Shown here: one piece after another, positions 1 to 28,176 of the stretch
Numbering within the stretch: position 1 is the first letter of the stretch
Layout of the letters: every line of letters starts with the position of its first letter
Origin: Macrostomum lignano
Lineage: Eukaryota
Direction: 5' to 3'
DNA length: 64,000 nucleotides
NCBI GenBank assembly: GCA_002269645.1
Contig: NIVC01000077.1
Coordinates: forward strand, 187,230 to 251,229
Program-made: the position numbers and the translations under genes
The notes under the pieces: generated by a model
The model's database searches: none
What the model was told of the DNA's origin: nothing
Seen by the model: only the letters and a program-made list of their open reading frames with translations

Positions 1-240
1 ATTTTTAATAAATTAGGAAAAGATTTTAACATCATTGAAAAACACGACGGAAGCGGATTATATCTCGAAATGCGACCAAAAGCAGGTTCAGGAATTTTCT
101 TAAATTCAAACGTTATGGGCAATGGATTACTGTTACCAAAAGCAGATCTCGAATAGGCACCTGGGGGGTGGGTCAAGACACCAAAAACGCAAAATTAAAA
201 AACCAATAATTCAAATATTATATAAATTTGATTCTATAAA

Positions 241-3200: not shown

Positions 3201-4215
3201 TAAAGCAAAGAAATATTTCTCAAAACCTAACTTTAAAGATTTTATAAAATTTGATGATAACTTTATGGGAATACATATGAGAAATAAAACAACAAAATTT
3301 CTTAAACCAATATTTATTGGAATGGTTGTTCTAGATTTTGCAAAGCTAGTAATGTATGAATACTATTATGATGTTATAAATAAAACATGGCCAGATAACT
3401 ATCCAATATATGCAGACACCGACAGTTTGGTATTTAAGGTTGAAACAGATGATCGGACGGAGTCCGCGACCCTGCGGGGCGATCGGGCAAAGCCCGCGAA
3501 CCAAAGGTTCGATGTCTATAAAGATATGGAAAAAATTAAGGATACATTGGATACATCCGACTATCCGGATAACCATCCCTTAAAATCGAATCAAAATAAG
3601 AAAGTTGTACTTAAAATGAAAGATGAATTAAATAGCAAAATCATATCCGAGTTTATAGCAATAAGATCAAAATGCTATGCATTTAAAGTTTTAGGACAGG
3701 AGGGAGAGGTAAAAAAAATAAAAGGGGTATCAAGGGCGGCAGTTAAAAAGATAACATTTGATGATTATAAAAATGTACTTTTAGATTACCTTAATACAAT
3801 TGAAAATTATCACACTCCACAATATCGATTAAATTCAGATAAGCATCGGATGTTTGTCATCGAGACAGATAAAAAAACATTAAGTCCATTTGATGATAAA
3901 AGATATTTAGATGATAAAATTAAAACATATCCATATGGTTTAAAAGATGAGATAAAAAATATGATAAAAGATAAAAAACAAAAAGAAGATATAATAAGCA
4001 AATATAATGAATACAAAGAGGCAATAAATAATTATTATTACGATTGTGATTGTGAATCCGAATGTGAATGTGAATATAATACATTTCTAGAATATGAAAA
4101 AGATATAGATAATTATTATGCAACTTTTCCAAAAGAACTTAAAAAATTAAACAAGGAAAAAGTCTTGGATAACTGGAAGAGATTAACAGAAAAACTAATA
4201 ATGGTAAAAAACTAA
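241..4215 (+). CDS. Protein-primed family B DNA polymerase (pPolB) with endonuclease-VII-like Zn domain
   Basis: ExoI IYADFE, ExoII FHNGSGYDFHF, ExoIII YLKADVLLLAD; polymerase motifs YLDANNLYG, KLMNNAFYGK and YADTDS; CxxC...HCHLTG.YRG..C..CN insert at about 1714-1812. Confidence 0.97.
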   Translation: MEAILAQIDNPEIRAQLIAQLELERANIEARVRAENEIRLERQLNDIDNPQPQGQNGAKVIDIDIDINTNYKEYFKQMKDKLKTILNNYTIRPNNKRQPIKYKIEVETEFKKPNILSANSEIEVINNFSQESYKTLLSMGNYNNQFNQIEAEFDEWIDKMTDNGSGFIFVSCNSATVKIVPIEILKGRSHMNPRFKSHMIINPDNRDNKCLLWCLLIHKYHNQVESHTNKIYNYRQYEDEIIMKNISYPVAIDDIYKIEKMNGLNINVFTIEEPEDLEEISTDPDWYKKRCYLVKPATDITAPDQIDLLYIQRENETHYIYIKDISSFLQENRNRYPLCRNCFTFKKDETALKNHQRFCLDHKFTNVVMPAYEDATLKFQQHYMAIKKPIVIYADFEATNVPLKESQTVSDGECTKKLAQQFPNSYCIYVHSVADHIFKSRMITYHGKDAAKHMAESLVNVFEYIQNQYDKLSKNIIMTDKDRDNYKNATNCYMCKRYLSGKNKIREHCHLTGIYRGAACRSCNAKEGKGCKEIPVFFHNGSGYDFHFLVRELLHLGRDEYEINILPKTSENYISITYGKKYSHLVFLDSLRFLSTSLANVVSSLVPKPWDLEIVKKNFPILLNRFKKEKLSEEELMLLTRKGCYPYEYVTSEDVFFHTELPPIEKFYSTLSQSNISESDYEHAQKVWKCFNCKTFKDYHNLYLKADVLLLADAFENFRNHTYENFKIDPAYCFSAPGLTWACGLKYTDVEIDLLTDHDMLLMIERGIRGGFSGVLGDRYTKVNNKYLPNYNKKEKSSYVLYLDANNLYGGCMKQKLPIADFQWEDDPDYYKNIPEGRGCIVEVDLQYTREAKAKTYKYPLAPEHCSVNEDDLSQTQKDYLKADNAKHLATKKLILNLHDKKNYVVHYKLLQFYEKQGLKVSKVHRTISFIEEDWLAKYIDFNSNQRQMSKTNFEKDYWKLMNNAFYGKTVENIRDRTQFHLEKDIDKAKKYFSKPNFKDFIKFDDNFMGIHMRNKTTKFLKPIFIGMVVLDFAKLVMYEYYYDVINKTWPDNYPIYADTDSLVFKVETDDRTESATLRGDRAKPANQRFDVYKDMEKIKDTLDTSDYPDNHPLKSNQNKKVVLKMKDELNSKIISEFIAIRSKCYAFKVLGQEGEVKKIKGVSRAAVKKITFDDYKNVLLDYLNTIENYHTPQYRLNSDKHRMFVIETDKKTLSPFDDKRYLDDKIKTYPYGLKDEIKNMIKDKKQKEDIISKYNEYKEAINNYYYDCDCESECECEYNTFLEYEKDIDNYYATFPKELKKLNKEKVLDNWKRLTEKLIMVKN

Positions 4216-4593
4216 AGCATGTAATTCTTCGAGCATATCATTAACTGCAATTTCATATAATATTGAAGGCCAATTTTCCTCGCAGTCGTCAGGATCGGTC
4301 GAAGACCGCGACCCTTCGGGGCGGTAACTTAAACATTCTTTTATTTTTTTCCTAAGTACTTTTATTCGTCTAACCAATCTATCTATTTCAATTTCAATTA
4401 CTGTTTCAGCATAAGCAAGCGCAGCTTTTATAAAACACATTCTTTTATCCATCTCATATCGGATGGGAAACATTTCGTCCCCCCACTCACTATAAGACAT
4501 TGAATTTATTTTTTTATTAATATCTTTAATTTCACGCTTTTTAGTGATAAGGATTTTTATTGTCTCCATTTTCTTATAAAAAAAATTAGTCAT
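4195..4593 (-). CDS. Polinton hypothetical protein (likely start METIK at 4569)
   Basis: ORF tightly packed between viral genes; the ATG at 4569 has the A-rich start context shared by the other viral genes. Confidence 0.6.
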   Translation of the reverse strand: MTNFFYKKMETIKILITKKREIKDINKKINSMSYSEWGDEMFPIRYEMDKRMCFIKAALAYAETVIEIEIDRLVRRIKVLRKKIKECLSYRPEGSRSSTDPDDCEENWPSILYEIAVNDMLEELHALVFYHY

Positions 4594-4918
4594 CTTCGCC
4601 AGCCTCCCAAACGGAAGCCAATTTTACAGTCCTGTCACTCTTTTTATTATTTGTTTGTTTTAGTTTAAATTGCAATCCACCCTCGGTGCTGTATTTTATA
4701 ATGAACGCTTTAGGTTTATTAATAACTAAAACTGGAAAATTTTTAACATCATTCCCACTTAGACATAGTATTGTTTGCCCATCTAATTGTAAAAATATCG
4801 ATTGAAGTCCAATAAATTTAACCTGTCTCAAACATATAATATTATATTCTTTATTCTCCAACATATTGGGTGTGAGATAATTAATCACATTAGAATCGGT
4901 TTTGAACCAGCTCTCCAT
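4586..4918 (-). CDS. Polinton hypothetical protein
   Basis: 110-aa ORF with TAAAAATG start context, abutting its neighbours. Confidence 0.6.
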   Translation of the reverse strand: MESWFKTDSNVINYLTPNMLENKEYNIICLRQVKFIGLQSIFLQLDGQTILCLSGNDVKNFPVLVINKPKAFIIKYSTEGGLQFKLKQTNNKKSDRTVKLASVWEAGEDD

Positions 4919-4944
4919 TTTTAATCTAAAAAAATAACAAAAAA

Positions 4945-5457
4945 ATGAAAGACATTTATGAATGTAATAAATGTAACGTGACTATGCATAGAGCTCAAAC
5001 AGTAAACGGAGATATATATCATATGTGTTATTCATGTTCTAAAATATATCAATTTGAAAAAACAAAAAAGATTGAAAACTCATATTACTATTTTAAAAAC
5101 ACAATTTTAAGAAATCTTACAAGAGACATATCTGATCCAATTTTAATTCCCGGAAATAATGTTTATTTATATAACAACTTTTTCCATTTAAATAAAGGAA
5201 AGGGATTAAGTTCGAAAGACGCTGAAAGGATTTTAATTTTAGTTGGATATTATTTTAATTTTCTTATTCGAGAGAATACAAAGTTCATAAGGATAGGTAA
5301 CATACCTAACGAAATGTTACTGAAAAAGTCGTTGGAATTTTTATGTATTGATAAAAAATTTAAACCTAGGATCACAAGAGAATTACCACTTTGGGAAGAA
5401 TATATAACATATGCATTAGAAAAATTGTACTTTGTACACATGACTTGTCATGATTAA
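4945..5457 (+). CDS. Polinton protein with N-terminal CxxC...CxxC zinc ribbon
   Basis: CNKC and CYSC motifs near the N-terminus; 170-aa ORF with AAAAAATG start. Confidence 0.65.
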   Translation: MKDIYECNKCNVTMHRAQTVNGDIYHMCYSCSKIYQFEKTKKIENSYYYFKNTILRNLTRDISDPILIPGNNVYLYNNFFHLNKGKGLSSKDAERILILVGYYFNFLIRENTKFIRIGNIPNEMLLKKSLEFLCIDKKFKPRITRELPLWEEYITYALEKLYFVHMTCHD

Positions 5458-6140
5458 ACAACATTAAGTTCTACCGCACTACCTGATCGGGGGCTTTGTA
5501 CCCCAGTACCAATAGTTTCGGGTTCGTAAATACCTAATGTTTCTATCGGCGGAGCTTTGGGTTTGTCGAGTCTCAACTCTTTTAATTCTATATCGGTAAA
5601 AGTTTCAACATCTAAAATTCTATTTCGATCTTTTAAATATTTTTCATATAATTCAACCGCGGTTGATAACTCGTGAATTGTTATCTCTCCGTCATCCAAT
5701 ATTTTTTGCACATATAAATATAACTGATTTTTATATTGCTTGGCAACATCTCTTAATGATTTATATTTTTCCTTTCGTTTTTTAAGATATAATTTAATTG
5801 CTAAAAGTATTGATAAGTTTCTGATTAATTCAAAACCTGATATTGAGCCAATTGAAATACCTAAAAATAATTGAGATAAATTAAGAGTTGGAATAGATTG
5901 TAAAATACCTAAAATGATTACACATAACATCGATAAGCTTCCAAAACCAATATTGAAAAAATCCATATTTCTGATATGGTTTGAAATCCTTCTTACTTTT
6001 TTACTATATAAATCATAATCATAGTTAATACGATCAACATTACTTAACATGTGGCCTTTACGTTGGTCGTGCATAGCACGCGAACCTTCGGTTCGGTCAA
6101 AATGGTCACGTTCCCTTTTATCTGCTTCAGACACCGACAT
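5454..6140 (-). CDS. Predicted membrane protein (two hydrophobic segments followed by a helical ..LDDGEI.. region), Polinton accessory type
   Basis: Hydrophobic stretches FFNIGFGSLSMLCVIILGIL and LFLGISIGSISGFELI...LLAIKLYL, then a basic patch and KILDDGEITIHEL. Confidence 0.65.
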   Translation of the reverse strand: MSVSEADKRERDHFDRTEGSRAMHDQRKGHMLSNVDRINYDYDLYSKKVRRISNHIRNMDFFNIGFGSLSMLCVIILGILQSIPTLNLSQLFLGISIGSISGFELIRNLSILLAIKLYLKKRKEKYKSLRDVAKQYKNQLYLYVQKILDDGEITIHELSTAVELYEKYLKDRNRILDVETFTDIELKELRLDKPKAPPIETLGIYEPETIGTGVQSPRSGSAVELNVV

Positions 6141-6456
6141 TCTCGTCTATTTTTAATAGCACCAAAATGAATTCCCCGCGCTCTTTGGGGATTTGTCCTG
6201 AGCTCAATAGGTATTGTATTGGACTTATTCTTTCTTTTTTCTCCCATTTAAATCCAATTTTCCAAAACTCTTGAAGTATAATATGATTTTTTAATAATTT
6301 AATTAATTCTTGAAGTTTCTTATTATCCTGAACATTCACATTGCTAAATAAATATTTGGTATGAGATTTAAAAGTTTTTATAATCGGTTCTTGTTTAGGA
6401 ATAGGAATAATAACATTATTATTCTGCCGCATCGATGGAGTTCTACTAAAAGCCAT
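6127..6456 (-). CDS. Polinton hypothetical protein
   Basis: 109-aa ORF with TATAAAATG start context. Confidence 0.55.
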   Translation of the reverse strand: MAFSRTPSMRQNNNVIIPIPKQEPIIKTFKSHTKYLFSNVNVQDNKKLQELIKLLKNHIILQEFWKIGFKWEKKERISPIQYLLSSGQIPKERGEFILVLLKIDENVGV

Positions 6457-6527
6457 TTTATATAGAAATATTTAAGTTATCGAACCAAAGGTTCGCGACT
6501 TAGGCTTTAGCCTTAGGCGATCGCCCC

Positions 6528-8398
6528 TTAGGGTCGCAGCATTAGCTGATCTGTGTAGGTGGTTTTTCTAAATAAGCGGTAGAAGGAAAAACATAGCCGT
6601 AGAAAAACGGCAGCGCCACGAATAAAATGTGCAGCATCCGATCCTCCGGTTCGAGCACCAAAACCCATAAGAGTTCCAGATTTATCTAAAGTTCCCCAAT
6701 TCCCACTATCATAAGCAAAAACATTTTGCCCAATTAGAGTATAAGAATCGGCTGAAACATTGTATGAATTTAATCGATACCAAACCCTTTGATTAAGAAT
6801 ATTTATTTCAAACAGATGCCAATCACCATTATCAATATTTGCATAGTCTACCGTTTGATCCGCGTCAGTATTAACATCCGCGCGGCTTGATCCATCTGAT
6901 TTTTTAGAACTCCAAAGTAGGCCAAATTTATCATGCCACTCACTCGCAAAAACTATCAATCCAGCGTCTGTTGCTAAACCTGCCCCGCTTTCGGTTGTTG
7001 GTCGTTCGTGACAATATGCATAAAACCAAACGGCATCTGCACCACCTCCTGTAGCATTAGCAACTCTGAAAAAGAAAGACGCTGATATATTTTGAAAATG
7101 TGTGAAATTAAATTGTAATGCCCCACTGACTCCAACAGTTTCACGAGTAATTCTAGCACCATTTTGATAATCGATATAAGAAGCGTCGCCAATTAAAGAA
7201 CCAACTGGATATATATCTCCGGCGGTTGTTGGATTTTGATATCCAGTCCAATTGCAAATTACTGTCTCGAATAATGCAGCATCAATCGCGGGAATATTAT
7301 CCAATTTATTTTTATCACCTGCAGACATTCTACCGTTTGATGTTGGGGTTGCTACCTGATCTACGTACGCTCGCGGGGTTGCAGAAAGTATTTGATTCGG
7401 CCAATTAAGATCTTGAATTTCAACTCGGTGTTCAAATAATTGAATTAGACGAACCTCGATAGGTTGTGTAGCGGTGCCACCAGTTGGGAATAAAACACTA
7501 TAATATTTCCAAAAATTAACCGTTAAATTAGTTAACGCAAATGAAGTTGCTTGAATTGGCGATCCCGACGTTCGTAATACCGTCCATGCATCGGTAGCAA
7601 CATTTTTTGCGCGAACCGACCATCCCGATGGGATATCAATAGTTGCGCTGCCTGTAATTCTTAATTCATTTATTCTTCGATTATAACCTAAAAATTCAAA
7701 TTGAATTTCAATATTGGTTGTGGTTCCGGTATTTGGTGACCATTGTGTCGCAAGGCTTCCATCTCCAACTCGAAAAGCATCGTTGGTATTTTCAGATGCT
7801 GTAAGAACAACATCAGGATTTGAAGTATTTGATGTAAGCGGTGTGGCAAAAATATCGGCGTCTGTTACATTAGCTCGAGCGTTGACTTGCCCTAAATTGA
7901 CCGAGTCTGTGTCCTCTGTTCCAAATAATAAATTTGTTAATTTAAAATTATTCATATTAATATTGCCAGTACGACTACCAACCTGATTATCGACATAGTT
8001 CTTATCAACTACCGAGTTATTCGTTGTAATTGCAACATTTATAATTCGATTGTTGTTTCGGTTCCGGTTGCGGTGGTTTGAACATAACGCGAATCAGAAT
8101 CATTTCGAGAATAAGAATCAGTTATATCTCTTTTTAAATTTAACCCAGTGTCAACCTCTGTTTTTGTATATGAATCACTAATATCTCTTTTAAGATTTAA
8201 TGAAGTGTCGATTTCAGTTTTGGTATAGGAATCTGCAACGTTTCTTTTTAAATTTAGTTTAGTATCAATTTCAGTTTTTTTATAACCTTCATCCTCATTA
8301 ATATATCGGTTATCTCCGAATGTAACACTTATTCCACCAGATGTACCACCACCAGTACTTGTTGTTCCGTTCCATGAGGGTGTTCCAGAAAATATCAT
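6528..8398 (-). CDS. Putative virion fibre/receptor-binding protein, split by one frameshift near 8045-8065 (track ORFs 8039..8398 and 6528..7955)
   Basis: Three DSYTKTEIDTxLNLKR repeats; then, in the -1 frame, NNRIINVA...DKNYVD and NFKLTNL...DSVNLGQV stalk motifs; a discoidin-like beta region; an ATPTSNGRMSAGDKNKLDNI tail-fibre motif; and a C-terminal lectin-like region. The 7955 ATG lacks the viral start context. Confidence 0.7.
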
Positions 8399-8408
8399 TT
8401 TTTACTGC

Positions 8409-8936
8409 CTATTTTATAGAGTCTAAAATCGCCCCGTAGGGTCGCGGACTTCGTCCGATCGTTCCGATGGAACGCGTGCTTTGCACGATCGAACCGAAGG
8501 TTCGCATACTTTGTATGATATCTTTAAAGTCTTCGGGTCTTTCCTTAGAGTTATTAATTTTATATAAAAAATACAACGCCGCTTGCCCGCAATAACTTTT
8601 ATCAAAGGTTTGAAATTGTTCGTGATGATCTCCACATAAACGATTTTTAGTATGATTAAATTTGTCTTTTATTTCCTGTAACGGAGGAAGCGCGTATGAA
8701 TCAAAAAAATAAACAAGTTTGGGTTTGGAATAAACTGCCGACCAATGAACACCGTTTTCTTTTGTTGTTTCTATATTGACAATGTAAGATCCATATTGTG
8801 GTAAGTCTTTGATCTCATCTCGCATAACACATCTAAATGGTTTTATTTTTAGTTGCCGCGCCCAATTTGTTAATTCAATATTGCTTGTTGTGTCAGTTCC
8901 ATATCTTTGTTTGAACAACTGCCAATTCAAAGTCAT
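8409..8936 (-). CDS. Adenain-like (C5/Ulp-type) cysteine protease
   Basis: Catalytic triad motifs GVHWSAV, YFFDSYAL and QFQTFDKSYCGQAALYFL. Confidence 0.92.
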   Translation of the reverse strand: MTLNWQLFKQRYGTDTTSNIELTNWARQLKIKPFRCVMRDEIKDLPQYGSYIVNIETTKENGVHWSAVYSKPKLVYFFDSYALPPLQEIKDKFNHTKNRLCGDHHEQFQTFDKSYCGQAALYFLYKINNSKERPEDFKDIIQSMRTFGSIVQSTRSIGTIGRSPRPYGAILDSIK

Positions 8937-8937
8937 T

Positions 8938-9111
8938 TTATGTTCCTGAAAAACTCTTGGTTTTGATTAGTTTCGTAGGTTTGGATTTTAACAGTTCCTT
9001 TCGGATTTTTTCTGCTTGAAGTTGTTTCAATTTTGTTAGTTCGATTTCATAATTATCCTTTGCATTTTGAACTTTATCTGATTGTTTTTTTAAACTATTA
9101 TTGTTACCCAT
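8938..9111 (-). CDS. 57-aa basic microprotein with N-myristoylation-type start (below the ORF-track cutoff)
   Basis: Hand translation gives MGNNNSLKKQSDKVQNAKDNYEIELTKLKQLQAEKIRKELLKSKPTKLIKTKSFSGT*. It fills the gap between penton and protease genes almost exactly and has a TAAAAATG start. Confidence 0.65.
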   Translation of the reverse strand: MGNNNSLKKQSDKVQNAKDNYEIELTKLKQLQAEKIRKELLKSKPTKLIKTKSFSGT

Positions 9112-9121
9112 TTTTACAATG

Positions 9122-9907
9122 TTAAACCTGTTTTATCCGTAAAATTATTGTTATTGACTGTCCACCAAAACTTATTAATCTATCGCTTTCATCTACAATC
9201 CTAATATAAATTGATTGAACACTATATTGATTTAAAGGATAATATATTGGGGTTTGGGGTGCAACAATCATTTTCTCTCCAATTGGAACAGCAAGAAATG
9301 GGATGGAATAAATAATTCCACGTTGAACCAAAACTCCGTTATCATCTGTTATATAACCGCCGTTTGATATGTCGGTTGTTATATTAATTGTATTAACTCC
9401 ACCCTCAATATTTCCAACGGTATCGCCAGTGCTTGATGTGGTAACGATTCGGGAATTAAATCCGAGTATGGTTCTGAGTGAATTTGCAATTGTGAAATCA
9501 ACCTGATATCCAGATTCTAGTGATAGCGTGAATCTGCCAGATGGTAAATCAACCCCTATAACAATCGCGCCTGCTACCCAATCGCCATTAGCTGTTAATT
9601 CTCCTTCTATATAAGCATTCAAATCGGTATAGGAATATGCTCCTGGGTTAACGCTAAATGTTGTCCAATTGGCTCCGGAATCTTTAGAATATCTAAATTG
9701 ATTATTTGTTGCATTAATTAATTGAGGCATGTTAAAAACTGAAAATAGTATCAAACCTATTTGATAACTTAGGCTTTGATCGAGTTGTAACGGATCGCGC
9801 AATCGAATCAGTTGCTCACTTCTTGTCATTATAAACTGTAAGGTTGTACTAAATTTTGAATTAGTTCGATCTACCAATTGTTTTATAGTATCCAAATTTG
9901 TAGCCAT
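9122..9907 (-). CDS. Minor capsid protein (penton, single jelly-roll)
   Basis: Polinton penton-like motifs: LDQSLSYQIGL, NNQFRY...VNPGAYSYTDLN, NSLRTILGF, INITTDI...GGY, PIYYPL, IYIRIVDESDRLISFGGQSITIILRIK. Confidence 0.85.
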   Translation of the reverse strand: MATNLDTIKQLVDRTNSKFSTTLQFIMTRSEQLIRLRDPLQLDQSLSYQIGLILFSVFNMPQLINATNNQFRYSKDSGANWTTFSVNPGAYSYTDLNAYIEGELTANGDWVAGAIVIGVDLPSGRFTLSLESGYQVDFTIANSLRTILGFNSRIVTTSSTGDTVGNIEGGVNTINITTDISNGGYITDDNGVLVQRGIIYSIPFLAVPIGEKMIVAPQTPIYYPLNQYSVQSIYIRIVDESDRLISFGGQSITIILRIKQV

Positions 9908-9925
9908 TTTTTATAGTGGATAAAA

Positions 9926-10690
9926 CTAAGTCTCTTCTTCCTCATTATCTTCTTTTATCAGATTTGTTAAGATTCGATGTTTCCTTTCTAACCTGGGGTT
10001 GATATATATGTGTTTGTATTGGCTATCATCCCAAATTTTTTTACACATACTTTTAAATGGTTTGGTATCCAACCCAGGATTAAATCTAGCGTGTATATTT
10101 TGTAAATCATATTTATCTAAATCAAACATTACACAACAGCTAGCATTCTTTTTTATAATTGATTCTAATTCTCTAAAAGATTGAGTAAGATAAAATGCTC
10201 CAATTCCATCTCCTCTACCACTAACAAAAATTTCCTTTTGCAATTCTTGATCGCCGTCATTAATACAATCATCAAAAATAATTAGTGTTTTATCATGTTT
10301 TGGAATTTGATCATAGGATAATCGGGTTGATACTCTAACAGTTGGGGATCTCTCGGTGGTGTTTTCTGATATTTGTGCCGTTGTTTTACATAAATCCTCA
10401 ATGTCATCGAGTGTAAATCTTGGTTCATCATCGTCCTCATATTGCTCATATGCTCTTAACATTCTAAACATAATATCTTTTTTTAATTTGTTTTTTAATC
10501 CATGTTTAAGAAATTCATAATATTTTATTTTAGGTTTGTTAGTATATATTAATAAATTATTATAGTCTAACATTCCATCTGTTGTTAATAAATCGTAAAC
10601 AAAGTGTGTTTTTCCTTTACCTGATCCTCCGATTACTAAACAAAGAAAAGGATCATTTGGAAATATCTTATTGTGTTTTGCTTTTACCAT
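9926..10690 (-). CDS. A32/FtsK-like DNA packaging ATPase
   Basis: Walker A GGSGKGKT, Walker B LIIFDD, downstream GR...FYLTQ motif. Confidence 0.92.
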   Translation of the reverse strand: MVKAKHNKIFPNDPFLCLVIGGSGKGKTHFVYDLLTTDGMLDYNNLLIYTNKPKIKYYEFLKHGLKNKLKKDIMFRMLRAYEQYEDDDEPRFTLDDIEDLCKTTAQISENTTERSPTVRVSTRLSYDQIPKHDKTLIIFDDCINDGDQELQKEIFVSGRGDGIGAFYLTQSFRELESIIKKNASCCVMFDLDKYDLQNIHARFNPGLDTKPFKSMCKKIWDDSQYKHIYINPRLERKHRILTNLIKEDNEEEET

Positions 10691-10738
10691 TTTTAAGGAA
10701 ATAATTTATATAGGCGCGACGTGCTTTGCACTGCGACA

Positions 10739-12211
10739 CTAAAGTGGCGCGTCCTGAACTATGGTTCCGTCAGCCCGTGCAATTGCCATGTATTCCTCGA
10801 GAAACAAAACGTGGGCGTCAACCGCCTGATTTCCGGTTTTATTAATCTCTAACATATAATTAAGTCCAACATTGGATACATTTTCTTTCTGTGCCGTTAG
10901 GTCAAAAACAGACACTGGATGAATGTTTAGAAACTCGGTGGGTGTGTACTGAGGAACCGCATACACTTCATTTTTGACATAATCCTGATAATATTTTATA
11001 AAATCATTAACATCATTATTACCTATATTAAGATTAAGGGGTTCTTTAACCGGATAATACTGATCATCAACCTGTAGGCGAATATTCTGAAGATTAAATG
11101 CGTTTATTGCTGAAGCTGCGGTATCGGTTGCCGTGGCTGCTTGGTCTGCTACTGCATCAGATTGAATCCAATACAAATCACCGTTTGCACGTTTGCTAGT
11201 TCTATTTGTTATTTTAAACCAAACAAATATATATCTCACCCGACGTTTTGATGTTAATATTTGCCATTGGAATGAATCCTGATTGTTATTAATGGTGCGC
11301 ATAAAATGTCGACGATTCAAATAAAATATTTCTTGATCAACCATTAACTGATTATCAATATGTTTTAATAGCGGAGCCGTTACCTCAATGGTTGGTACGA
11401 CTAATTGAATTGAAACTATTCTAAGTGCTATATCGGTTGAGGTTGAAGTTCCAAAAAGTATCCTACCCTGATATCCACCAGATATTTGCAACTGTACCCC
11501 AAATTTTAATCCTTTCCATACCCGATTTGGTGAGAAGAACCCAAACAGTGGAAAGATTGAAAAGTCTTGCTCGTAAGCTGTTGCGTTGGTTAAAACCGCG
11601 ACTGGGAATTTATTCTGACGATCTAGGAATCCCGTGTTTATGTTTTTAGGGTTGGTTAGAGTTGTTACAACTGGAACTATGTTTGTATTAAGGTAATTAA
11701 TAAGAGCTGCGGTATCTGCACCGGCTGCTGGTGCTACGTTAGGAAAATTTATTGCTCCACCATCTCCCTTATCGGGCATCCATCCAACATTATCACCAAC
11801 CTGTTTTGATAAATAAGTATAATTTAAATGTTTAAGAACTCCATTAATCTCTGCGGGGTTTGTTGATGTTTCAACCTCAGCTCCGTTAATTCTTAGTTGA
11901 GCTTGGGAAAAACATTTATAAAACCAATCGTTCTCGATAACAATACCAGCGCGGTCTGCTATATCACCAGCTCCAAGAGCCGTTCCGTCATTTCGTGTAT
12001 ATAACCATCTAACACGGAAAAACGCATTTTTCATATCCAGTATTGTATTAGTTGCACCAACATCAAAAGTTACCGTTCCAGTAGTAAAATTGTTTGAATT
12101 ATCGCTTGTTGGTAGGGTATAATTTAAATCTCTTGCCCTGACCTCATTAATATACTGGCGGTGCTTTTTGAAATAATACTTATCACTCCATCTGGTTTTT
12201 GTTTCAGCCAT
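10739..12211 (-). CDS. Major capsid protein (double jelly-roll, hexon-like)
   Basis: 490 aa, beta-rich, adjacent to the ATPase; motifs FSQAQLRINGAEVE, FPLFGFF, RPRYIF-like RVRYIFVWF, NIRLQVDDQYYP, PVSVFDLT. Confidence 0.85.
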   Translation of the reverse strand: MAETKTRWSDKYYFKKHRQYINEVRARDLNYTLPTSDNSNNFTTGTVTFDVGATNTILDMKNAFFRVRWLYTRNDGTALGAGDIADRAGIVIENDWFYKCFSQAQLRINGAEVETSTNPAEINGVLKHLNYTYLSKQVGDNVGWMPDKGDGGAINFPNVAPAAGADTAALINYLNTNIVPVVTTLTNPKNINTGFLDRQNKFPVAVLTNATAYEQDFSIFPLFGFFSPNRVWKGLKFGVQLQISGGYQGRILFGTSTSTDIALRIVSIQLVVPTIEVTAPLLKHIDNQLMVDQEIFYLNRRHFMRTINNNQDSFQWQILTSKRRVRYIFVWFKITNRTSKRANGDLYWIQSDAVADQAATATDTAASAINAFNLQNIRLQVDDQYYPVKEPLNLNIGNNDVNDFIKYYQDYVKNEVYAVPQYTPTEFLNIHPVSVFDLTAQKENVSNVGLNYMLEINKTGNQAVDAHVLFLEEYMAIARADGTIVQDAPL

Positions 12212-12245
12212 TTTTTATAGTTAAAAAAGTTTTTTATGTTAAAAA

Positions 12246-12917
12246 ATGAGTCAATTTATGGATGTTGATGGAGAGTTAGAGATTTATAAAGATAAGCAAA
12301 GATATTCTGATTTTGTTAGAAATTTACAAAAAAGAAAGTTAGGAATACAATTAGCTGGCGAAAGATTTGCTGCTCCTTTTGTTAATCCGATTACGGAGAA
12401 AGTTAGTGAACTAGAAAAAACAGATAAAGACCTTCTAGAAAAAATTGCTAAGAATACCGAGCCAAAAGAGGATGAAATTTTGGATGAGCCGCCTGCTTAT
12501 GATGTTGATCAAGCATTATTGAGAGTTGCAGAAATTAGGGCTGCAGAAAGGGGTGGAGTTGAACAATATCCGAGAGCTGCACCACAAAGTATTGCTGTGC
12601 GAGATTTAGATAATAATAATTATCGAATTGGTGGAGTTGTTAAAAATCAGAATGAGCTATATAGAGAATTGGGTGGAGCATATAATATTATTATGAACCC
12701 GAGGGTAAAATTTAATCCTGATTTATATACTAGGGATGAATTAGTAAGTGCTAAAATTTTTTATGATGAGTTAGGAGAAAGAGCTGCTAAAAATACCAGT
12801 TTGTATAAAAGGATTGTTGATTCTATAAATAACAAACCGGTTGTTGGAGAAGGATTTAAAACTCCACGAAAACTTGTTTTAGCTGCTGCGAAAGCTGCTG
12901 GACATACAGGAGTTTAA
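12246..12917 (+). CDS. Polinton conserved hypothetical (core-like) protein
   Basis: 223-aa ORF divergent from the MCP gene, ending VVGEGF...LAAAKAAGHTGV. Confidence 0.6.
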   Translation: MSQFMDVDGELEIYKDKQRYSDFVRNLQKRKLGIQLAGERFAAPFVNPITEKVSELEKTDKDLLEKIAKNTEPKEDEILDEPPAYDVDQALLRVAEIRAAERGGVEQYPRAAPQSIAVRDLDNNNYRIGGVVKNQNELYRELGGAYNIIMNPRVKFNPDLYTRDELVSAKIFYDELGERAAKNTSLYKRIVDSINNKPVVGEGFKTPRKLVLAAAKAAGHTGV

Positions 12918-12944
12918 TTAATTGTTAAATTTATTTTTTATAAA

Positions 12945-13460
12945 ATGGAAAATACGATAAAAAATTGTCTTTGTAAACCTATTTATGATAAGGCTGGTTC
13001 TGACAGAATACTAAATAAGATATTTCAAAATGAATTAATAATTGCAAACCGTATTAAAACAATTCAAATGAGACTTGGATATCTTTATGAATTATTAGCT
13101 ATTGAACATTTTGGTTTTGAAAAAATAAACAAAATTGATTTAATTCATACCGAAAGAAAAATTGCGTTAGAATTAAAATCTTCTGATAATACAGATAATT
13201 TATCAAGTAGATTTAGAAATATTCAAAAGTTATTAGAATTTAAATATGTTAATCCCGAATTTGATTTATATTATATTTGCATTAATAATACTACTAAAAA
13301 CCCCGTACAAAAGGTATTTGATAATGGAGTTACCTTTTTAACTGGGGAATTTGCTTTAAATTTTTTATATGGTGATCAATATTTGGAAATTATTAAAATG
13401 ATAGAAACGTGTTTTTCAAAGATTAAAAATGAGCAACCGAACGAAGTTCGCGAACCGTAG
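12945..13460 (+). CDS. PD-(D/E)XK restriction-endonuclease-fold nuclease
   Basis: Motif spacing GYLYE...KIDLIH...IALELKS fits E...(P)D...(D/E)xK. Confidence 0.65.
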   Translation: MENTIKNCLCKPIYDKAGSDRILNKIFQNELIIANRIKTIQMRLGYLYELLAIEHFGFEKINKIDLIHTERKIALELKSSDNTDNLSSRFRNIQKLLEFKYVNPEFDLYYICINNTTKNPVQKVFDNGVTFLTGEFALNFLYGDQYLEIIKMIETCFSKIKNEQPNEVREP

Positions 13461-15035
13461 GTTCGACCAATTAGTATTTGAAGGAGGATTTTTAGACTTA
13501 CAAAAAGGATTAACAAGCTTACCGAGTATTTTTACTACTGGAAGGTATACAAATGAATTACACCTGCCGTCGTATAATTTCACAGGTTACCCCGTGGCCT
13601 GAGTGAGGAAGTCAATGTCCTTGCTAGTCACTATTTGTGGCGACATCTTCAAATTGCGTGAAACCCGTCATACAGCTTCAAGTACCACTTCAATTGAGAA
13701 ATCTTTTGAAGGAACAGAGGTAACTCCTCTTCCCAACGGTAACAAGCTTGAAGACATGGTGGCAATGCGCAGCCAAGCTCCTAAGTCGGTCGATATGGAG
13801 AAGGTTCAGAGAGCAGACGGAGATGGGCGGTAATTTAACCGCTTAAGGTGTGCTCCAGCCTCTTTCGAAAGATTGAGGGTAAACTACCCGGCACTAAGTT
13901 AGATTTGAGATTAAATCCTGATGACACTCCAAAAGCTGATTCAATTCCCATTAACGGTATTGATTGGTTAGCATATTATCATGACTTAGCATACAGAGAT
14001 GCTGATAAGAACTCACCCGAGGAAGCATTAAGATTAAAACATGAAGCCGATAGAAAAATGATTCAAGGATTAGATAACTTACAAGGATTATCGGTAAGCC
14101 AAAGATTAACTCGGTGGATGGTTAAAAAGATTCTGCAATCTAAAGTTAAATTTGGTTTGGGAATTAATTACAATCAACATGGAAATAATTGTGTTGAGTG
14201 TTTATTATTAAGTGGCAGTGGGTTAAGTTCTGATGAGGCAAAGATTCTTCATAAAGAATATCGAAAACCTAAATTTTATAGAAAAATCATGAACTTCAAA
14301 AAGAATGAAATTTGGTATGCTGATTTAATGTCGATGCCGAGCGACAGAGGATATAAATATATTTTAACCATATTAGATGGTTTTACTAGATACGCGTGGG
14401 CTGTTCCTTTAAAATCCAAAAAAGGAGAGGAGGTTGCTGCTGCTTTTAGAAGTCTTGGAGAAAAAAGCGAACGGTTGTGTGTTGATGAGGGAAAAGAATT
14501 TTACAATCCTCATATGTATAAATTATATCATTTTGAAAAAGGAAAAGAAAGGATGAAGGACGCGAATGGGGAGTATATTAATAAAATTTATTCTATTTAT
14601 GGAGAAAGTAAAAACGCATTAATAGAAAGATTTAATCGAACTTTGGGGAAGAAATTGTGGTTTCAGTTTAGTCTTAATGGAAACCAAAAGTGGGTAAAAA
14701 TATTACCAGACGTCGTGAAAGATTATAATAATTCATATCATTCAGCAATAAAGATGACTCCTCAACAAGCTTATAACAATCCTGAAAACGTTAAAGTTAC
14801 TTTTGGAAAATTTGAAAAAAATAAAAAGAAATCTTTTAAGGTTGGTGATTCTGTTTATATCTATAAATGGAAAAATAAGTTTGAAAAGGGAAGAAAAGGA
14901 TATTGGAAAATTAGTGAGAAATTTACTATCAGTAAAGTTTTAAATACAAATCCTACAACCTATATAATTGCTGATAAGGATGGTGAAGAAATATTAGGTT
15001 CGTTTTATGAGAATCAACTAATATCAGCGAACTAA
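13429..15035 (+). CDS. PLA2 (parvovirus VP1u-like)-RVE integrase fusion, join(13429..13587,13887..15035), 435 aa after intron removal
   Basis: Exon 1 (53 codons) ends ELHLPSYNFTG and exon 2 starts PGTKLDLRL...IDWLAYYHDLAY, rebuilding the PLA2 Ca-loop and catalytic HD. Integrase DDE motifs: WYADL, LCVDEGKEF, IERFNRTL. Confidence 0.9.
13588..13886 (+). ncRNA. Group I self-splicing intron, IC1-like, 299 nt, no homing endonuclease, terminal nucleotide A
   Basis: P1 CAGGU/GCCUG with U13587.G13597 wobble; P3 CAUCUUC (13644-50)/GGAGAUG (13819-25); P element AAAUUGCGUGAAA (13651-63) pairs with Q AAUGCGCAGC (13764-73); P6a CUCC/GGAG; P7 G-A-GAGCA (13809-15)/UGCUCC (13851-56); P8 GGCGGU/ACCGCU; P9 CCUC/GAGG; P9.0 AG (13857-58)/CU (13884-85). 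Exact removal restores the reading frame. Confidence 0.92.
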
Positions 15036-15272
15036 GTTCGAACAATTACTTGAGACAACATGGTAGTAAATTTTTTATAACAAACAAAAACAATATTATT
15101 ACTATTATTGTTACTAATATAATTATTGAAATTTGTTCAACAGATATCAAACTTAAATTTTCATTAAGTTCATTAATCGGCACATTTCCGATGTAGGAGT
15201 AATTTACCTTCATTTTTTATATATATTTTTCATAATAAATGTTGTTTCTGTTATAGAATAATAGTTCATTTT

Positions 15273-15587
15273 TTACATAAAAATTTCAATTTCATTCTCA
15301 GAATCACTAGTTTCATATGAGCTATTTGTTGAGTTGGAATCGTCTGAACGAACCTCCCAATCATCCGAATTTAAATAATCTCCAAGTTGAAATATTAACT
15401 CACCCTCTTGTTCTAAATCATACATCTCATCCAACTCTAATGGATAAAGTTTTGGGTCGTGCTTGTCGTCATACTTTAAATAAACTTCATCAATTATTCC
15501 ATTCAAAATATGTTGTTTTATTATCTCTGCATTTTTAGCAACAGTCTCAAAAGTATCACTAACAGAAAAGGTGTAAACTCGGGTCAT
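15273..15587 (-). CDS. Small acidic Polinton hypothetical protein
   Basis: 104-aa ORF with TAAAAATG start, last gene before the terminal region. Confidence 0.55.
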   Translation of the reverse strand: MTRVYTFSVSDTFETVAKNAEIIKQHILNGIIDEVYLKYDDKHDPKLYPLELDEMYDLEQEGELIFQLGDYLNSDDWEVRSDDSNSTNSSYETSDSENEIEIFM

Positions 15588-15693
15588 TTTTAGTAACAGA
15601 AAAAGACCCTTCGCGCCTGCGGCGCGTGCGAGGGGTTATAGAGATTTGGATGTGTTAGAAGTGTTGGGGAGTGTTGGAAGAATTGGGATGTGT

Positions 15694-15982
15694 AGTAGTA
15701 GGTAAAAAGACGAGTACAGATCAGCCCTTTTTAAATGGCCGTTTATAAGGTTCCAGAGGGGGGACACGAGGGGGCTAATTCAAAGAGTTGGGGATGGGTT
15801 ATATTGATTTGTGGTATTAAGGGGTGTTGTGGGTGATTAGGTGTGTTATGGGGTGTTATGGGTGTGTTATGGGTGTTTAGATGTGTTTTTTTATTTCCCC
15901 CCCCCCGTGTCCCCCCTCTAGACCCTTAAAACGGCTGTTAAAAAAGCGTGCTGGGTCTGTACTCGTCTTTTTACCTACTACT
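15694..15982. repeat. Polinton right terminal region with an internal inverted copy of the terminus
   Basis: 15694-15720 AGTAGTAGGTAAAAAGACGAGTACAGA is the exact reverse complement of 15956-15982. Imperfect pairing continues to about 15780/15893 around a GT-rich repeat core. Confidence 0.9.
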
Positions 15983-21177: not shown

Positions 21178-24100
21178 TTAGAGCTCCATCTCCATGCCGA
21201 TGTCAGGCAAGTCCGGGTCGCCTTCGGCAAGCACCTCCGGGTGGCGCAAGCTGGGCTCGAACAGCTGACTGCCTCGCAGGTCAGGCTGAACTGTGGCCGG
21301 CTGCTCTGGCGCGGGCTGATCGGCTGGGTCGACTTCGCTGTCTTCGCTCGACTCATAGGGCAGCATTGGCCGCTCTGTCTGGCGCGGCGGCTCCTGTGGT
21401 CGATCTGCCATCATCTGCGGCACCTTGATGATGTTGTTACGATGAACTAGCATTTCAGCTGGGCGTCCACGGCGGGCTGTCGCTGGCTTGATCCAATACG
21501 CCACTTCTCCGACTTTCCTGGCGACCTTGTACATACTCTTGTACGGCCGGTGGAACTTGGGCAGCTCTCCCAGTTCGAGCTTCGGGTTGGCCAGGCAGAC
21601 CAAGTCTCCGGGCTGCAGCTCCACGGGCTTTGGCCGGTTCTCGTAGTACTCCTCTCGGCGCTGGATCTCGGTTCTCAGTCGCTGTCGCACAATTCGTTCT
21701 GTCTCGGCCAGTCTGCGCTGATGTTTGGCAATGTACTCCGGGAGGTCAGCTGATACATCCAGTCGGTCTAGGGTGTTATCGATCGGATACCGGTAGGGCA
21801 CTCCGTAGATGACATAATGCGGCGAGAACCCGGTTGTACGATTGACTGCTGATCTTAGAGCTGTTAAAGCAGCTGGCAACATCTTGTCCCATTGCTGATG
21901 GTCTTCTAGGAGACAGGTGAGCACCTTCTTGATGTTCTTATTGCACGACTCAGCTTGTCCATTGGCCCATGGCGAATACGGCGGCGTCGTGGTCTGCCGG
22001 ATGCCGTAAACTTCGCAGAAGTGCCGGAACTCGTGTCCTGTGAACTGTTTCCCTTGATCGGAGTGAATCCATGCCGGGATTCCGGTGATCGGAAACACTT
22101 GTTCCTGCAGGAGCGTTATAATGGTCTTGGCCCGCTGATTCTTCATGGCGAAAGCGAAGGGGTATTTCGACGTAGTGTCGACGTAGGTCAAGATGCACTT
22201 GTTTCCTCGGTCCGTCGGGTCTCCAGTGGGGCCCAGGATGTCGATCGCACATCGCCCATAGATTTCACAGACCGGAAACGATTGTACATGCGCCGGAATT
22301 CGTCGCCGTCCTTTGCTCTGAGTGCAGGTCTGGCAGGAAGCGACATAGTCGGACACTGCCTTGGCCAGGGCAGGTCGCCAGAACCTTTCGCGCACCTTCG
22401 CGATGGTGAGGTCTCGGCCCATGTGTCCGCAGTAGGGTGAACCGTGGAGGTCGGCGAACACCGTGGCGTCGAGGCTCTTCGGCAGGACGATCCGCGCCGT
22501 TTCCTCCTCGCCAAGATCGTCGAAATGAATTACCAGTAGTCCATCATCTCGGACTTCGAGCTGCTCGTAGAACGCTAGTAAGTTTCGTTCGTCTCGTGTC
22601 ATATTCAAACGCTGATTCAGCGGCGGCTTCGGCTGTCGGCTTTCCAAAAGGTTGATCATCATGGCGATGGCAGAGTCAGCACGCTGGTGAGTCTGGAGCT
22701 CCTCACGTGTGACTGGCCTCGGGATGTGATCAGTTAGATTCAATGATGAACGTCGATTAGTCAAATTAGTCGGCGCGGCTTCGGCTGTGGCGGCATGGTT
22801 CGGGGTCTGGAGCTCCCTCCGCACGATCGCTACTCTGGCCGGTTGCCGGGTCGTTGATGTGCCCGAAGGTCGATCCTCGTCGGTAGCTTCGGCGTCACTA
22901 TTGTCGGATTCAGATCGGTCAGCAGTTGATGATGAGTCAGCAGAGCTGTCCGCGTCGCTGCTGAATCTCACCTTCTTCTCAAACTTCGGGCAGCGAGCGA
23001 GTTGGCAGCTGTCCTCTCTGGCTGCGCTGTGGTCGCTGTCCGTGCCGTCTCCAGCTAGTAGTCGGCGGCTCCTTGACGGGCAACATGTCGTGCTACTAAA
23101 ACCGGTAGGCGACCTCTGCGAGTCATCGTAACGGCTGGCTGATGGCCTCGGTTTCGTCGCCGGCGGGTGCAGCTCTGTCAGCGGCTTGCTGTCGGCTGTA
23201 GGTGTTGCTGGCGGCGTAGCCTCGCCGTTGGACTCCTTCGGCTTAGTCGGCGGTTTCCGTCGCTTACGGCGGGTCGACGGCTTCTTGCTCGGTGGAGGAC
23301 TAGGGTGGCTGCTGTCGTGGACCTTCGGCGCCGCTGCGCCAGTTATCGCGGCTGGCTGCTTACTTTGGTCCTCATCAGCTGCCTCGCGCTGAGCCTCCTC
23401 CAAGCATTCGGCGTCGTCCTCCGGCCGTCTCGAGAGACCGTCGGCGTTTTGATGCTGACTCGATTTGCGATGCTGGATCTCGAACTCAAATTCACTTAGC
23501 CGCTGTAGCCATCGTCCAAAGATGCCTACTTGTTGAGTTCGCCGGAGAATCCAGGTCAACGCTGCATGGTCGGTTCGACAAATGAACTTCTTGGCCAGCA
23601 GGTAGAAGCGGAAGTGTCGCATGCCATCTACGACTGCCAAGAGTTCTTGCTTAGTAATTGGATATCGGGCTTCAGCCGGTTTAAGTCGTCGGGAGAAATA
23701 GCCGATTGGGCGCTCGATCCCGTCAGCTTGGCGTTGGCTCAGGCAGGCTCCGATTCTGGTCGCAGAAGCATCCGTGTCCAGGATAAACATTACTTCCGGA
23801 TCCTCGCTGAACTGCGGATACGCGAGCACTGATGTCGAAGTCATGGCCGCTTTGAGCTGATCGAACGCGTCTTGCTGGGCTTTTCCCCATAGACAATTGA
23901 AATTTCTAATCTTCTTTTCCTTGATCAAGTCGTGGAGCGGAGCTGCAAGTTCTGCATAGCCAGGTACAAATTTTGCATAGTAAGCGCACGTGCAGACAAA
24001 ACTTTTAAGTTGTCGAGCTGTTCTTGGTCTTGGCCAGGTCTGAATAGCCTCGATCTTCGCCGGATCGGTCTTGATGCCGTCCTTAGTAACTACATGTCCC

Positions 24101-25765
24101 AGATAGTTTAGACTTGCCCGAAATAAATGGCACTTCCTGCCTTTGAACTTTAAGTTGGCCTCTTGAATTCGCTTAAATACTTCCTCCATATGCAGTAGAT
24201 GGTCATTAAATTTCTTAGAATAGACGATTACGTCATCCAGATAGGCTATTGCACTTTTGTAGGCGATCCCGTTGAGCACAGCGTTCATGAGGCGCATGAA
24301 GCTGGCTGGCGCCGAACTTAATCCCATAGGCATCACATTGTAGGCGAATTGTCCGCGGTGCAGCGTGGCAAAGGCCGTCAGATCTTGATCCTCTGGACGC
24401 AGTGGAATCTGATAGTAGCCGCTGTTCAAGTCGAACGTGCTGAATAGCTGGCTTCCTTCGAGGCTAGCGAACGCTTCCTGGATGTTCGGTATCGGGTACG
24501 GAAAGTACTCGCACTTTTGGTTCAGACTCCTGAAGTCTTGTACAATTCTCAGGCTGCCGTCCTTCTTCGGGATGATCACCAGCGGGGTGTTGTAGCTGGA
24601 GAAACTCGGTCTAATCACGCCTTTGGCAAGCAGATCGTCAAGCAGCTGGTCCACCTTGGGCAGCAAATGCGGCGGAATCCTTCGGGTCGGCAGATGTACA
24701 GGATCCTTGTCCTTCAACACGATGTTGTGGGTGACCAGGTGGGTTCGGCCGAGATCGTGTGGTCCCTGCGAGAAGATGGTCTTGTACTTCTTCAATAGCT
24801 CGATGACTTGAGTGCGCTGGTCATTGGACAAGTCCTCGCCGATGTCGATCTCTTTGATCCAAGCGTCAGGATCTTCGTCTTGAACTTGATTAACTGAAGC
24901 TTCTGGCTTCGGCAGCGGAAAGAATTGTAACTCGGGCAGTCTGATTGGTCTCGCTATCCCGACTAGGGCATTCGCTCGCACTTTGATGGATGTAGTGCCT
25001 CGATTGATCATTTCAATGGCGCCTTCTCCATTGGCCATAGATATTAGGGCAGGCGCGGCGTCCAGTTGCTGCACATCTTCTTCACGCCGAGCCGGTTTTA
25101 GCGGCTCGATCACAGCGGGTGTGCCCTGGTTTTCTTCTCGTCCTTTTGCTAGTTTAATCTTGATTCGGGCTGATGATAACGGCGGCACGGTTGTGCTCTC
25201 AGCCGTGTAGATTCTGCACGTAGTAGCTTCGGTTCGCGTATAGCGCAGTGGTGCGGCAGTGCCATCCTTGAAAAACAGCATCCCGGCGGCGAGTCCAGTG
25301 ATGTACTGTACTTCTCCAGGAACTCGAAGCCCAGGATGTTGTCATGAGATCCCTTCGCTAGCAGGAACTTGACTGTAGGCTCGAAACTCCAATTTTAACT
25401 TTGATTGATAGTTGGCCTGCCATTTGAATAGGCTCTCCATTGTAGGTCACAATGCGTTGCAGGCAGGGCTCGATTTGGCCACGCAGGGTCGGGTCATCGG
25501 TACATAGTCGGTGCCAGGTGCTGAATCCTAGGACTTCGCACTTGGAGCCGGTGTCAAGCAGAAAAGCAAAATAACGACCCTGAATCTCACCAGTTAGAAA
25601 CGGATCCCTTCGGGGTCGCTTGGGTGCAGAGTTATGTACAGGTGCAGCGGAGGCGGTCTCAGCAGTGGCCTGCTGAGCGACTAAAGTCCTCGGCGGGGAC
25701 CTTAGTGCTGGCTCGGCTGCTGGATGGCGCTGCCCCCGTTGGCGCGTCCAGCCGTCCCGTTTCCC
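21178..25765 (-). CDS. Gypsy Pol (protease-RT-RNase H-integrase), with two apparent 1-nt deletions near 25385 and 25293
   Basis: Protease LLDTGS, RT YLDD, RNase H ILDTDAS, integrase HxxxxxGH...CxxC plus AIDILG / HSDQG / QAES. Adding one base in a short run at each site fuses the track ORFs 25358..25816 and 21178..25281. Confidence 0.9.
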
Positions 25766-27105: not shown

Positions 27106-27154
27106 GACGTAAATTTTGAACGACTCGTTGAAAGGATTTCGGCGTTTCGTTATC

Positions 27155-27172
27155 CCACTTAGCTGACCACCA
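27155..27172 (-). promoter_or_regulatory. Primer-binding site
   Basis: TGGTGGTCAGCT... begins 1 nt inside the 5' LTR boundary on the minus strand, complementary to a tRNA CCA end. The priming tRNA was not identified. Confidence 0.7.
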
Positions 27173-27173
27173 A

Positions 27174-28176
27174 TGAGGTGGGGGTGGAGAAGAATTTTCT
27201 TGGAAACTCTCGGTTTCAAAAATTTGCTGACACCAGTGAGGTGGGGCGGATTCCTCGTTTGAATTGCCGCCTGCGTTGTAGAAGCACGAATAAAGCCGGA
27301 AAAATGCACAAATTGATGCGTTGATTCTTCTCCTAGGTTACTCCGTCTGCCGGGTCCTCAATTCCGGGGGGAGGGTAGTCGTAATCGCAGTCGAGCGGTC
27401 TAGTAGCGGCCCGGGTCGTTCAAATTAGGTCCTCAGACACCGTAAACTCGTAGTTCGTCGAATATGCTCGTTTGGTTACTAACAGTAGTAAAGTAGCGCT
27501 GCCACCACCGTAAATGTCGTTTTACGGAACGTTTAGGGTCTCAGAGCTTTCTTTGAGATGAGACTGATTGGTTATTTTACGCCCCGCGGGCAAATGACTC
27601 AATAGAAACTAAAGGCTTCGATTCTGAACAACTGAATGAATATTAAATGTTGGCGAACTGTATTAATTATGGTTGCGTTATTATTATTGTTATCATTACT
27701 TATTGTTACTACGCGAGATGATCAGAGACAGGAACAGAAGAAAAGGCGAAATTAAGAACTAAAACTAACTAAACTAAAACAAACAGTACAACACACACAC
27801 ACTAAAACTAACAAACAAAAGAAAAAACTAAAAAAACAAAACTAAAGGAAAAATGACTCCAGAGAAGACTCAAATAAATAACATTTTGGCGGGAAGGATC
27901 CCAGGGGTGGGACGAAGGATGGGACAAGGGAAGGGACAACGAAAGGAAAAAGGAAAACCCGGCCGCTGGAAACATTAAAACAACAGGGGCCAAGGGAGGG
28001 AACAGAAAAGGGAACAGACGAGGGAGCAAGGGCGGGAACAACCGGGGGAACAAACCAGGGAACAAAAATTGAAAAAAAATGACGTCAATCCGTCCGTGGA
28101 ACTGGGTGGAATGTCCCGCCGGTGTTCGCGCTAGAGGCCTGCCGTCGTTCTCCCAGTGGTAGACCGGCCTACCACA
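27174..28176 (-). repeat. 5' LTR of the Gypsy element
   Basis: Direct repeat of 18031-19032. Confidence 0.95.

Follow-up and report, generated by a model that had tools for sequence, protein, structure and literature searches.

Group I introns are expected to end in a guanosine (omega-G), which is taught as essential for the second step of splicing, yet A-ended and G-ended versions of one intron coexist at a single insertion site, over more than a hundred loci, in one animal genome. The window analysed here (the whole stretch of 64,000 nucleotides) holds one of the A-ended copies, and the question it raises is whether such an intron still joins its exons at this position and, if so, what selects the site in place of the terminal G. 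The answer bears on whether a ribozyme intron can work in mRNA in the nucleus of an animal. The occurrence of A and G among paralogues provides a natural allelic series, while natural variation in P9.0 and P10 makes the redundancy of the three 3′ determinants testable with natural sequences.

Identity of the intron and placement of its 3′ end

The PF08398 phospholipase A2-like domain of the gene is split by a 299-nt insertion that scores as a group I intron. Rfam family RF00028 matches positions 13578-13877 with 62.9 bits and an E-value of 1.4e-15 (gathering score 50); this match was absent from a fast-filter scan of the whole window and was found by a narrower scan. Folding of the whole region gives a z-score of -1.46, which is not significant, as expected because the core is pseudoknotted. 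By its core features the sequence reads as a member of the group I family, although it lacks the terminal omega-G, as does the ND5-717 intron; since omega-G is near-universal and not absolute (ND5-717 being an exception), A13886 makes this intron a variant within the family, not an outsider to it.

The 5′ site follows U13587, which pairs with G13597 as the U.G wobble of P1, and the guanosine-binding pair of P7 (G13811-C13855) is intact, with A13810 bulged. P9.0 is formed by the pairs A13857-U13885 and G13858-C13884 and adjoins P7 on one side and base 13886 on the other; a P9.0 lying between P7 and the last base is the usual geometry for omega. Exon bases 13887-13891 form four of five P10 pairs with 13592-13596. 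As stated in the available part of one source, P9.0 and P10 define the 3′ site of group I introns (PMC6155759). Furthermore, 7 of the 120 loci examined are intronless alleles, and because their exons meet exactly here (a Gly codon, then a Pro codon), omega is placed at A13886 independently of folding. Homologous proteins carry a PG[T/S]xL or GPGT motif in 37 of the 75 compared (the first 75 of 120 proteins), with Gly directly before it in 32 of these 37. The intronless-allele joints and the homologues thus agree with a preliminary description of this locus, which had the intron end in A13886 with the 3′ splice site there; the P9.0 (AG 13857-58 with CU 13884-85), the partial P10 and the canonical G-C pair in P7 described with it are likewise confirmed by the sequence.

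Ten alternative, G-ended 3′ sites between 13867 and 13902 were considered and rejected: seven would put exon 2 out of frame, and the other three would insert residues into the conserved motif or remove some from it. Rescue by the spliceosome was also rejected: joining the AG that arises in ten G loci to the nearest GT donor leaves the frame unrestored (by-hand reading of the sequence).

Table 1. Features of the intron, its gene and the neighbouring nuclease ORF (window positions)
Feature	Position	Strand	Basis and remarks
Free-standing Eco47II-like nuclease ORF	12945..13460	+	PF09553 match under the cut-off (E 2.4e-4); shares 63% identity with the ORF that the long omega-G sister intron L076 contains (L076 143-620)
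Exon 1, phospholipase A2-like/integrase gene	13429..13587	+	53 codons, the last Gly; supported by homologues
ORF-less group I intron, 299 nt	13588..13886	+	RF00028, 62.9 bits; ends set by intronless alleles
Internal guide sequence	13592..13606	+	P10 partner 13592-13596, G13597 of the U.G wobble, P1 partner; sequence
P7, 5′ strand	13809..13815	+	Bulged A13810; G13811 of the G-binding pair
P7, 3′ strand	13851..13856	+	C13855 of the G-binding pair; GAGCA/UGCUC variant, which occurs in giant-virus introns too
P9.0, 5′ strand (AG)	13857..13858	+	Directly 3′ of P7; AG in 113/113 scored loci
P9 stem-loop, GAAA loop	13859..13878	+	C-G pair replaced by A-U (compensatory) in 6 omega-A loci and 4 omega-G loci
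Predicted competing 5-bp hairpin over the 3′ splice site, A + CCC haplotype	13877..13889	+	Pair probability about 0.7-0.95; prediction only
P9.0, 3′ strand (CU)	13884..13885	+	Intact in 84/84 omega-A loci
Omega position, last base of the intron (A)	13886..13886	+	Sequence, intronless alleles, homologues
Exon 2	13887..15035	+	382 codons and stop; completes the PF08398 phospholipase A2-like domain and goes on into the rve integrase; codon 58 is the first Met

Element, gene and host

The first 16 kb of the window are AT-rich and carry a Polinton-like gene set, comprising a 1324-aa ORF, an rve integrase and an A32 ATPase. The retroviral-type integrase and the packaging ATPase are both hallmarks of Polinton/Maverick (adintovirus-like) elements and are present here, with E-values of 4.3e-7 for Pox_A32 (profile search of the window) and 3.3e-7 for rve, the latter at 30.9 bits and hence slightly below its cut-off of 32.6. 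Pfam gave no capsid or protease match in the ORFs of the element, and as regards polymerase B, the sole match of the 1324-aa ORF above cut-off is Endonuclease_7. This Endonuclease VII domain, at residues 487-538 of the large ORF (window 241-4215), recalls the nuclease insertions in Polinton polymerases. Polinton termini start with AGT, and an AGTAGT-type terminus lies near 15982 (right end only); a 289-bp unit at this end (15694-15982), flanked by inverted repeats starting AGTAGT, represents either a terminal structure or a small non-autonomous derivative.

The integrase gene opens with the PF08398 domain (E 1.3e-8 for an intronless allele, 0.0033 for exon 2 alone), and homologues combine PF08398 and rve in one protein. 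The host is an animal, with 86 Wnt-family matches in its genome. Within the intron, an optional 30-nt insertion after 13735 (L036, L051 and others; 16 of 74 distinct bodies) resembles a 30-nt insertion in exon 1 of the window, at about 13438-13467. Farther along, the window holds gag/pol of a minus-strand LTR retrotransposon (21178-27309) and a leishmanolysin (M8 peptidase) fragment (54753-55586).

Terminal base across copies

Over 113 scored paralogous loci, the omega position is A in 84, G in 29 and C or T in none; 118 loci were entered, 113 of them with an alignable 3′ end, G is over-represented owing to the deliberate addition of G and unusual loci, and apparent allelic duplicates in the assembly make these counts of loci rather than of independent insertions. 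Exact 15-letter patterns searched genome-wide gave 74 A, 19 G and no C/T matches (reversed-pattern controls: 0, 2 and 0), 5 of the 19 G matches lying outside gene context. A wider pattern gave 107 matches, and by hand 78 A and 22 G were counted among the 100 listed. Three further runs, drawn from three studies, likewise have contigs in which A predominates at omega, with omega-G at depths of 3.5 of 285, 0 of 32 and 8.8 of 67; the runs with omega-G carry, at equal depth, the linked exon +3 variant of the genomic G copies.

Omega-A is thus neither a sequencing error nor a lesion private to one copy; both, offered as options in the preliminary description, are excluded. Frameshifts in about 40% of the loci (errors in the assembly or in the copies) would speak for an error or a one-off inactivating mutation here, but the 74 exact-pattern A loci on many haplotypes, together with the A majority in contigs of the three other runs, leave such an explanation practically no probability. 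Comparison of the paralogous copies at 13886, which had been proposed as a check, returned A as the majority state and not G.

Core features and the exon 2 frame were compared between the two classes. All but one locus in each class (83 of 84 A, 28 of 29 G) keep the U.G wobble, P7 is kept in the A loci on its 5′ side in 83/84 and on its 3′ side in 82/84, the P9 compensatory pair is present in both omega classes, and the exon 2 frame is open in 50 of 81 A against 16 of 28 G loci. By a criterion reportedly due to Been and Perrotta in 1991, an adenosine-specific ribozyme has its G-binding pair replaced by C-G; in the A loci this pair is unchanged, so that no such swap is present. The P7 variant itself was considered as an A-accommodating pocket and rejected, being common to G loci and G-ended giant-virus introns, and one omega-A giant-virus intron has an ordinary P7 (L309/L319). 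In the common A haplotype, the predicted 5-bp hairpin at 13877-13889 would compete with P9, P9.0 and P10 and may bury the splice site, which would tell against splicing there; it is not kept in all copies.

Possible compensation by P9.0 and P10

All 84 A loci keep P9.0 intact; among the 29 G loci, 12 have it broken. Since only three variant types stand behind this asymmetry, its Fisher value of 1e-8 is not relied on; counted as three events, the asymmetry has a chance of about 0.02 (by hand, 0.26 cubed, as G accounts for some 26% of distinct rows). Of the junction haplotypes, 15 of 21 with A but 2 of 16 with G form the P10 pair at exon +3, an association confounded by linkage as exon +3 lies only 3 nt from omega. 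With the register left free, the common A haplotype has weaker duplex energies rather than stronger ones. The pattern is suggestive of a partial redundancy of omega-G, P9.0 and P10, in which A copies would be unable to spare P9.0.

Selection, recombination and origin

Codons 1-56 of exon 2 lie upstream of its first Met and therefore need splicing for translation within this protein. In these codons pN/pS is 0.085 over 37 A haplotypes (pS 0.35) and 0.080 over 14 G haplotypes, as computed from 91 of the 113 loci with frameshifted or divergent rows left out. Codon variants confined to A loci comprise 31 synonymous and 20 non-synonymous changes; the shared variants confined to A loci in codons 1-56 (12 synonymous, 12 non-synonymous) point to selection less strongly than the overall ratio does, and among singletons of the integrase part 18 are synonymous and 45 non-synonymous, which is near neutral. 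Haplotype diversity reaches a maximum of 0.169 in A and G alike and, with a pS of 0.39 in the first 20 codons, A spans the entire diversity of exon 2. With an intact core and exons that appear to be under the same purifying selection as those of G copies, the A copies do not look dead.

Two identical intron bodies are each found with both omega states, as is almost every intron variant. Given such heavy recombination among copies, the low pN/pS of the A loci may reflect exon sequence acquired from G or intronless copies. The omega state needs 9 changes on the exon 2 tree and 12 on the intron tree, while well-supported exon 2 branches force only 2; omega-A may have arisen once or many times.

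Nuclease and retention of the intron

Eco47II cuts GGNCC, and the same target is predicted for the upstream Eco47II-like ORF. Window positions 1-15600 contain no GGNCC against 16.9 expected, and the intron-bearing gene regions contain 4 in 169,172 nt; intronless alleles carry GGNCC at the insertion point. Of 81 A loci 24, and of 27 G loci 5, have the free-standing nuclease beside the intron-bearing gene. By interrupting a GGNCC site, the intron would have a value at the DNA level whatever its splicing rate, which supports tolerance of a slow ribozyme but equally feeds the alternative, weighed below, that the intron is a passenger.

Introns at the same site and in giant viruses

A sister family with an ordinary P7 and usually a long insert occupies the same insertion point, and all 30 of its loci end in G (in one row G is read after a shift by one base). 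Its members (L237-L266) are mostly 840-895 nt long, and L076, read through, holds a nuclease ORF. With G in all sister loci, omega-G is the probable ancestral state, and tolerance of omega-A would be particular to the present family among its same-site relatives. Another intron type at this point (L061-L073 and L080; 14 loci) has a GACUG/CAGUC P7, with L063 giving no RF00028 match; its 3′ end appears to be G as placed, and this apparent 3′ site would leave one extra residue and a changed conserved motif.

Proteins P0003 and P0036, from other samples, start with the translated 3′ end of this intron followed by a divergent exon 2, so the intron family occurs in other samples too. Relatives outside the genome comprise 4 metagenome and 22 viral loci, and no group I intron was found in the 13 of these 26 that were scanned with Rfam. 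A loose pattern search stayed at chance level (270 matches against 274 in the control), and long-gap and prokaryote scans gave apparent chance matches only.

RPB1 introns of giant viruses were reached by searching viral contigs for the P7 variant. A 3′-end pattern for the DGD/EMN site gave 10 matches, 6 of them in RPB1, of which 2 end in A and 4 in G (two of the four identical). The A-ended introns (L319 and L320, IMG/VR contigs), each seen in a single metagenomic contig, have their 5′ end right after the DFDGD codons with the P1 U.G pair visible, and both ends are thus seen. One has the variant P7 and the other an ordinary P7; the variant is therefore not the cause of omega-A. These RPB1 introns appear to be an independent case of the A ending.

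Explanations for the terminal A

Omega-A is probably a natural, tolerated state, the intron still splicing at A13886 with P9.0 and P10 choosing the site in place of the terminal G. The natural omega-A ribozyme put forward in the preliminary description is, on such indirect grounds, the option that the comparisons favour best. The first step would be normal, the intact G-binding pair in P7 using free guanosine. Exon joining would be accurate yet slower, because A should fit the G pocket poorly, as the ND5-717 precedent and, reportedly, in vitro work suggest. Such a cost may be tolerable if little phospholipase-integrase is needed, and also if the intron is held at the DNA level by breaking a GGNCC site that the neighbouring nuclease is predicted to cut. 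Contigs of seven runs, whose RNA status is guessed, contain no exon joint across the intron, one of them covering exon 2 only, and are neutral evidence.

A family-wide state kept by nuclease and recombination, an option absent from the preliminary description, accounts for part of the same evidence. Here the omega-A introns would stop short of full splicing and persist as passengers shielding the element from its own GGNCC-type nuclease, with G-class or intronless copies supplying phospholipase-integrase in trans, or with just the integrase made from Met58, and with recombination making the exons look conserved. GGNCC avoidance in the element and the GGNCC at the insertion point of intronless alleles fit this account, as do the existence of G-class and intronless copies, the rampant recombination and the 30/30 G endings of the sister family, by which G normally matters at this site. 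Nevertheless, it leaves unexplained why P9.0 is broken solely in G loci, why C and T never occur at omega, why A is spread over all of the diversity in exon 2 (pS 0.39 for the first 20 codons) and why omega-A is found in the RNA polymerase gene of two giant viruses, so that we give it real weight while considering it unlikely; if true, it would be a case of a non-splicing intron being retained through a nuclease. Alternatively, the omega-A introns might not be self-sufficient ribozymes and might complete the second step only when a putative host or element protein stabilises it. This would accord with the predicted competing hairpin, with the natural precedent ND5-717, whose splicing was shown in vivo only (PMC6545197), and with the need of many group I introns for host factors, L1949/L2449 being cases given in the available part of a review (PMC3679873). 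However, the core is complete, and the same ending occurs in two giant-virus introns in an unrelated setting; we regard this account as quite improbable.

Editing of omega-A to inosine, read as G, by host ADAR had also been proposed in the preliminary description, and would couple expression to editing. The host is an animal with ADAR/ADAT-family genes (16 PF02137 matches) and omega varies between A and G only, but ADAR needs a duplex longer than 5 bp, the sole predicted helix over A13886 is the 5-bp hairpin, and of the 32 inverted repeats in 13300-14500, the 25 longest, which were listed, all leave A13886 uncovered. Furthermore, the linked exon +3 variant in the G-bearing contigs (RNA status guessed), at equal depth, matches the genomic G copies, and the giant-virus omega-A needs no animal editing; the proposal is unsupported and very unlikely. 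Going beyond tolerance, omega-A could conceivably be a recurrent, selected state of viral group I introns, in which G is dispensable given P9.0 and P10, A holds back the output of phospholipase-integrase and prevents the omega-G-driven circularisation that leaves exons unjoined, and the state arose independently in animal Polinton and giant-virus RNA polymerase introns. This stronger claim is doubtful; were it true, annotation that assumes omega-G would misplace such intron ends.

Relation to known systems

Like ND5-717, the present intron is a natural group I intron without omega-G in a protein-coding gene. The available part of the report on ND5-717 describes, for corallimorpharian mitochondria, an intron without omega-G whose exons are ligated exactly, with >70% of precursors unspliced and no circles (PMC6545197). 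That intron is mitochondrial, single-copy and vertically inherited, whereas here a multicopy viral element of mobile type in an animal genome has A and G segregating among its paralogues. The ND5 precedent named in the preliminary description therefore holds as regards the lack of omega-G and the exact but inefficient ligation; the last base of ND5-717 is reportedly A. Work on omega mutants of the Tetrahymena and Anabaena introns, by Been and Perrotta in 1991 and Golden and Cech in 1996, is said to have found that a terminal A slows the second step, that P9.0 and P10 help to keep the site and that swapping the P7 pair gives adenosine specificity. Those mutants were made in the laboratory, whereas the present introns end in A naturally and in many copies, and their G-binding pair is unaltered.

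Protist Polinton-like viruses of Paulinella, Desmodesmus and Rhodomonas have RF00028 introns of 309-376 bp upstream of the capsid gene, as far as the available part of the report goes (PMC12220804); these too are short group I introns inside genes of integrated elements, whereas the present one lies inside a phospholipase-integrase gene. In phages, collaborative homing involves a free-standing nuclease, of other families, beside an ORF-less intron (PMC11296320, available part). The present arrangement is alike in having a free-standing nuclease next to the intron gene, with a homologue inside a sister intron, though cutting is predicted only. The accessible text on Bodo saltans virus describes introns in an essential motif of polr2a/b, of which the parental ones carry a nuclease and their offspring lack an ORF; the nucleases are HNH and GIY-YIG (PMC5871332), as against the Eco47II-like nuclease here. 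Nuclear group I introns were placed in rRNA genes of microbes only by a 2013 review, in the part available (PMC3679873). In the literature searched, mainly the text of openly available papers, no viral or Polinton group I intron was found to be described as ending in A. The P7 variant of this intron is also present in uncultured giant-virus RPB1 introns. It is shared, moreover, by viral loci L273 and L280, where several group I introns lie in tandem and a probable capsid gene carries an intron at its end.
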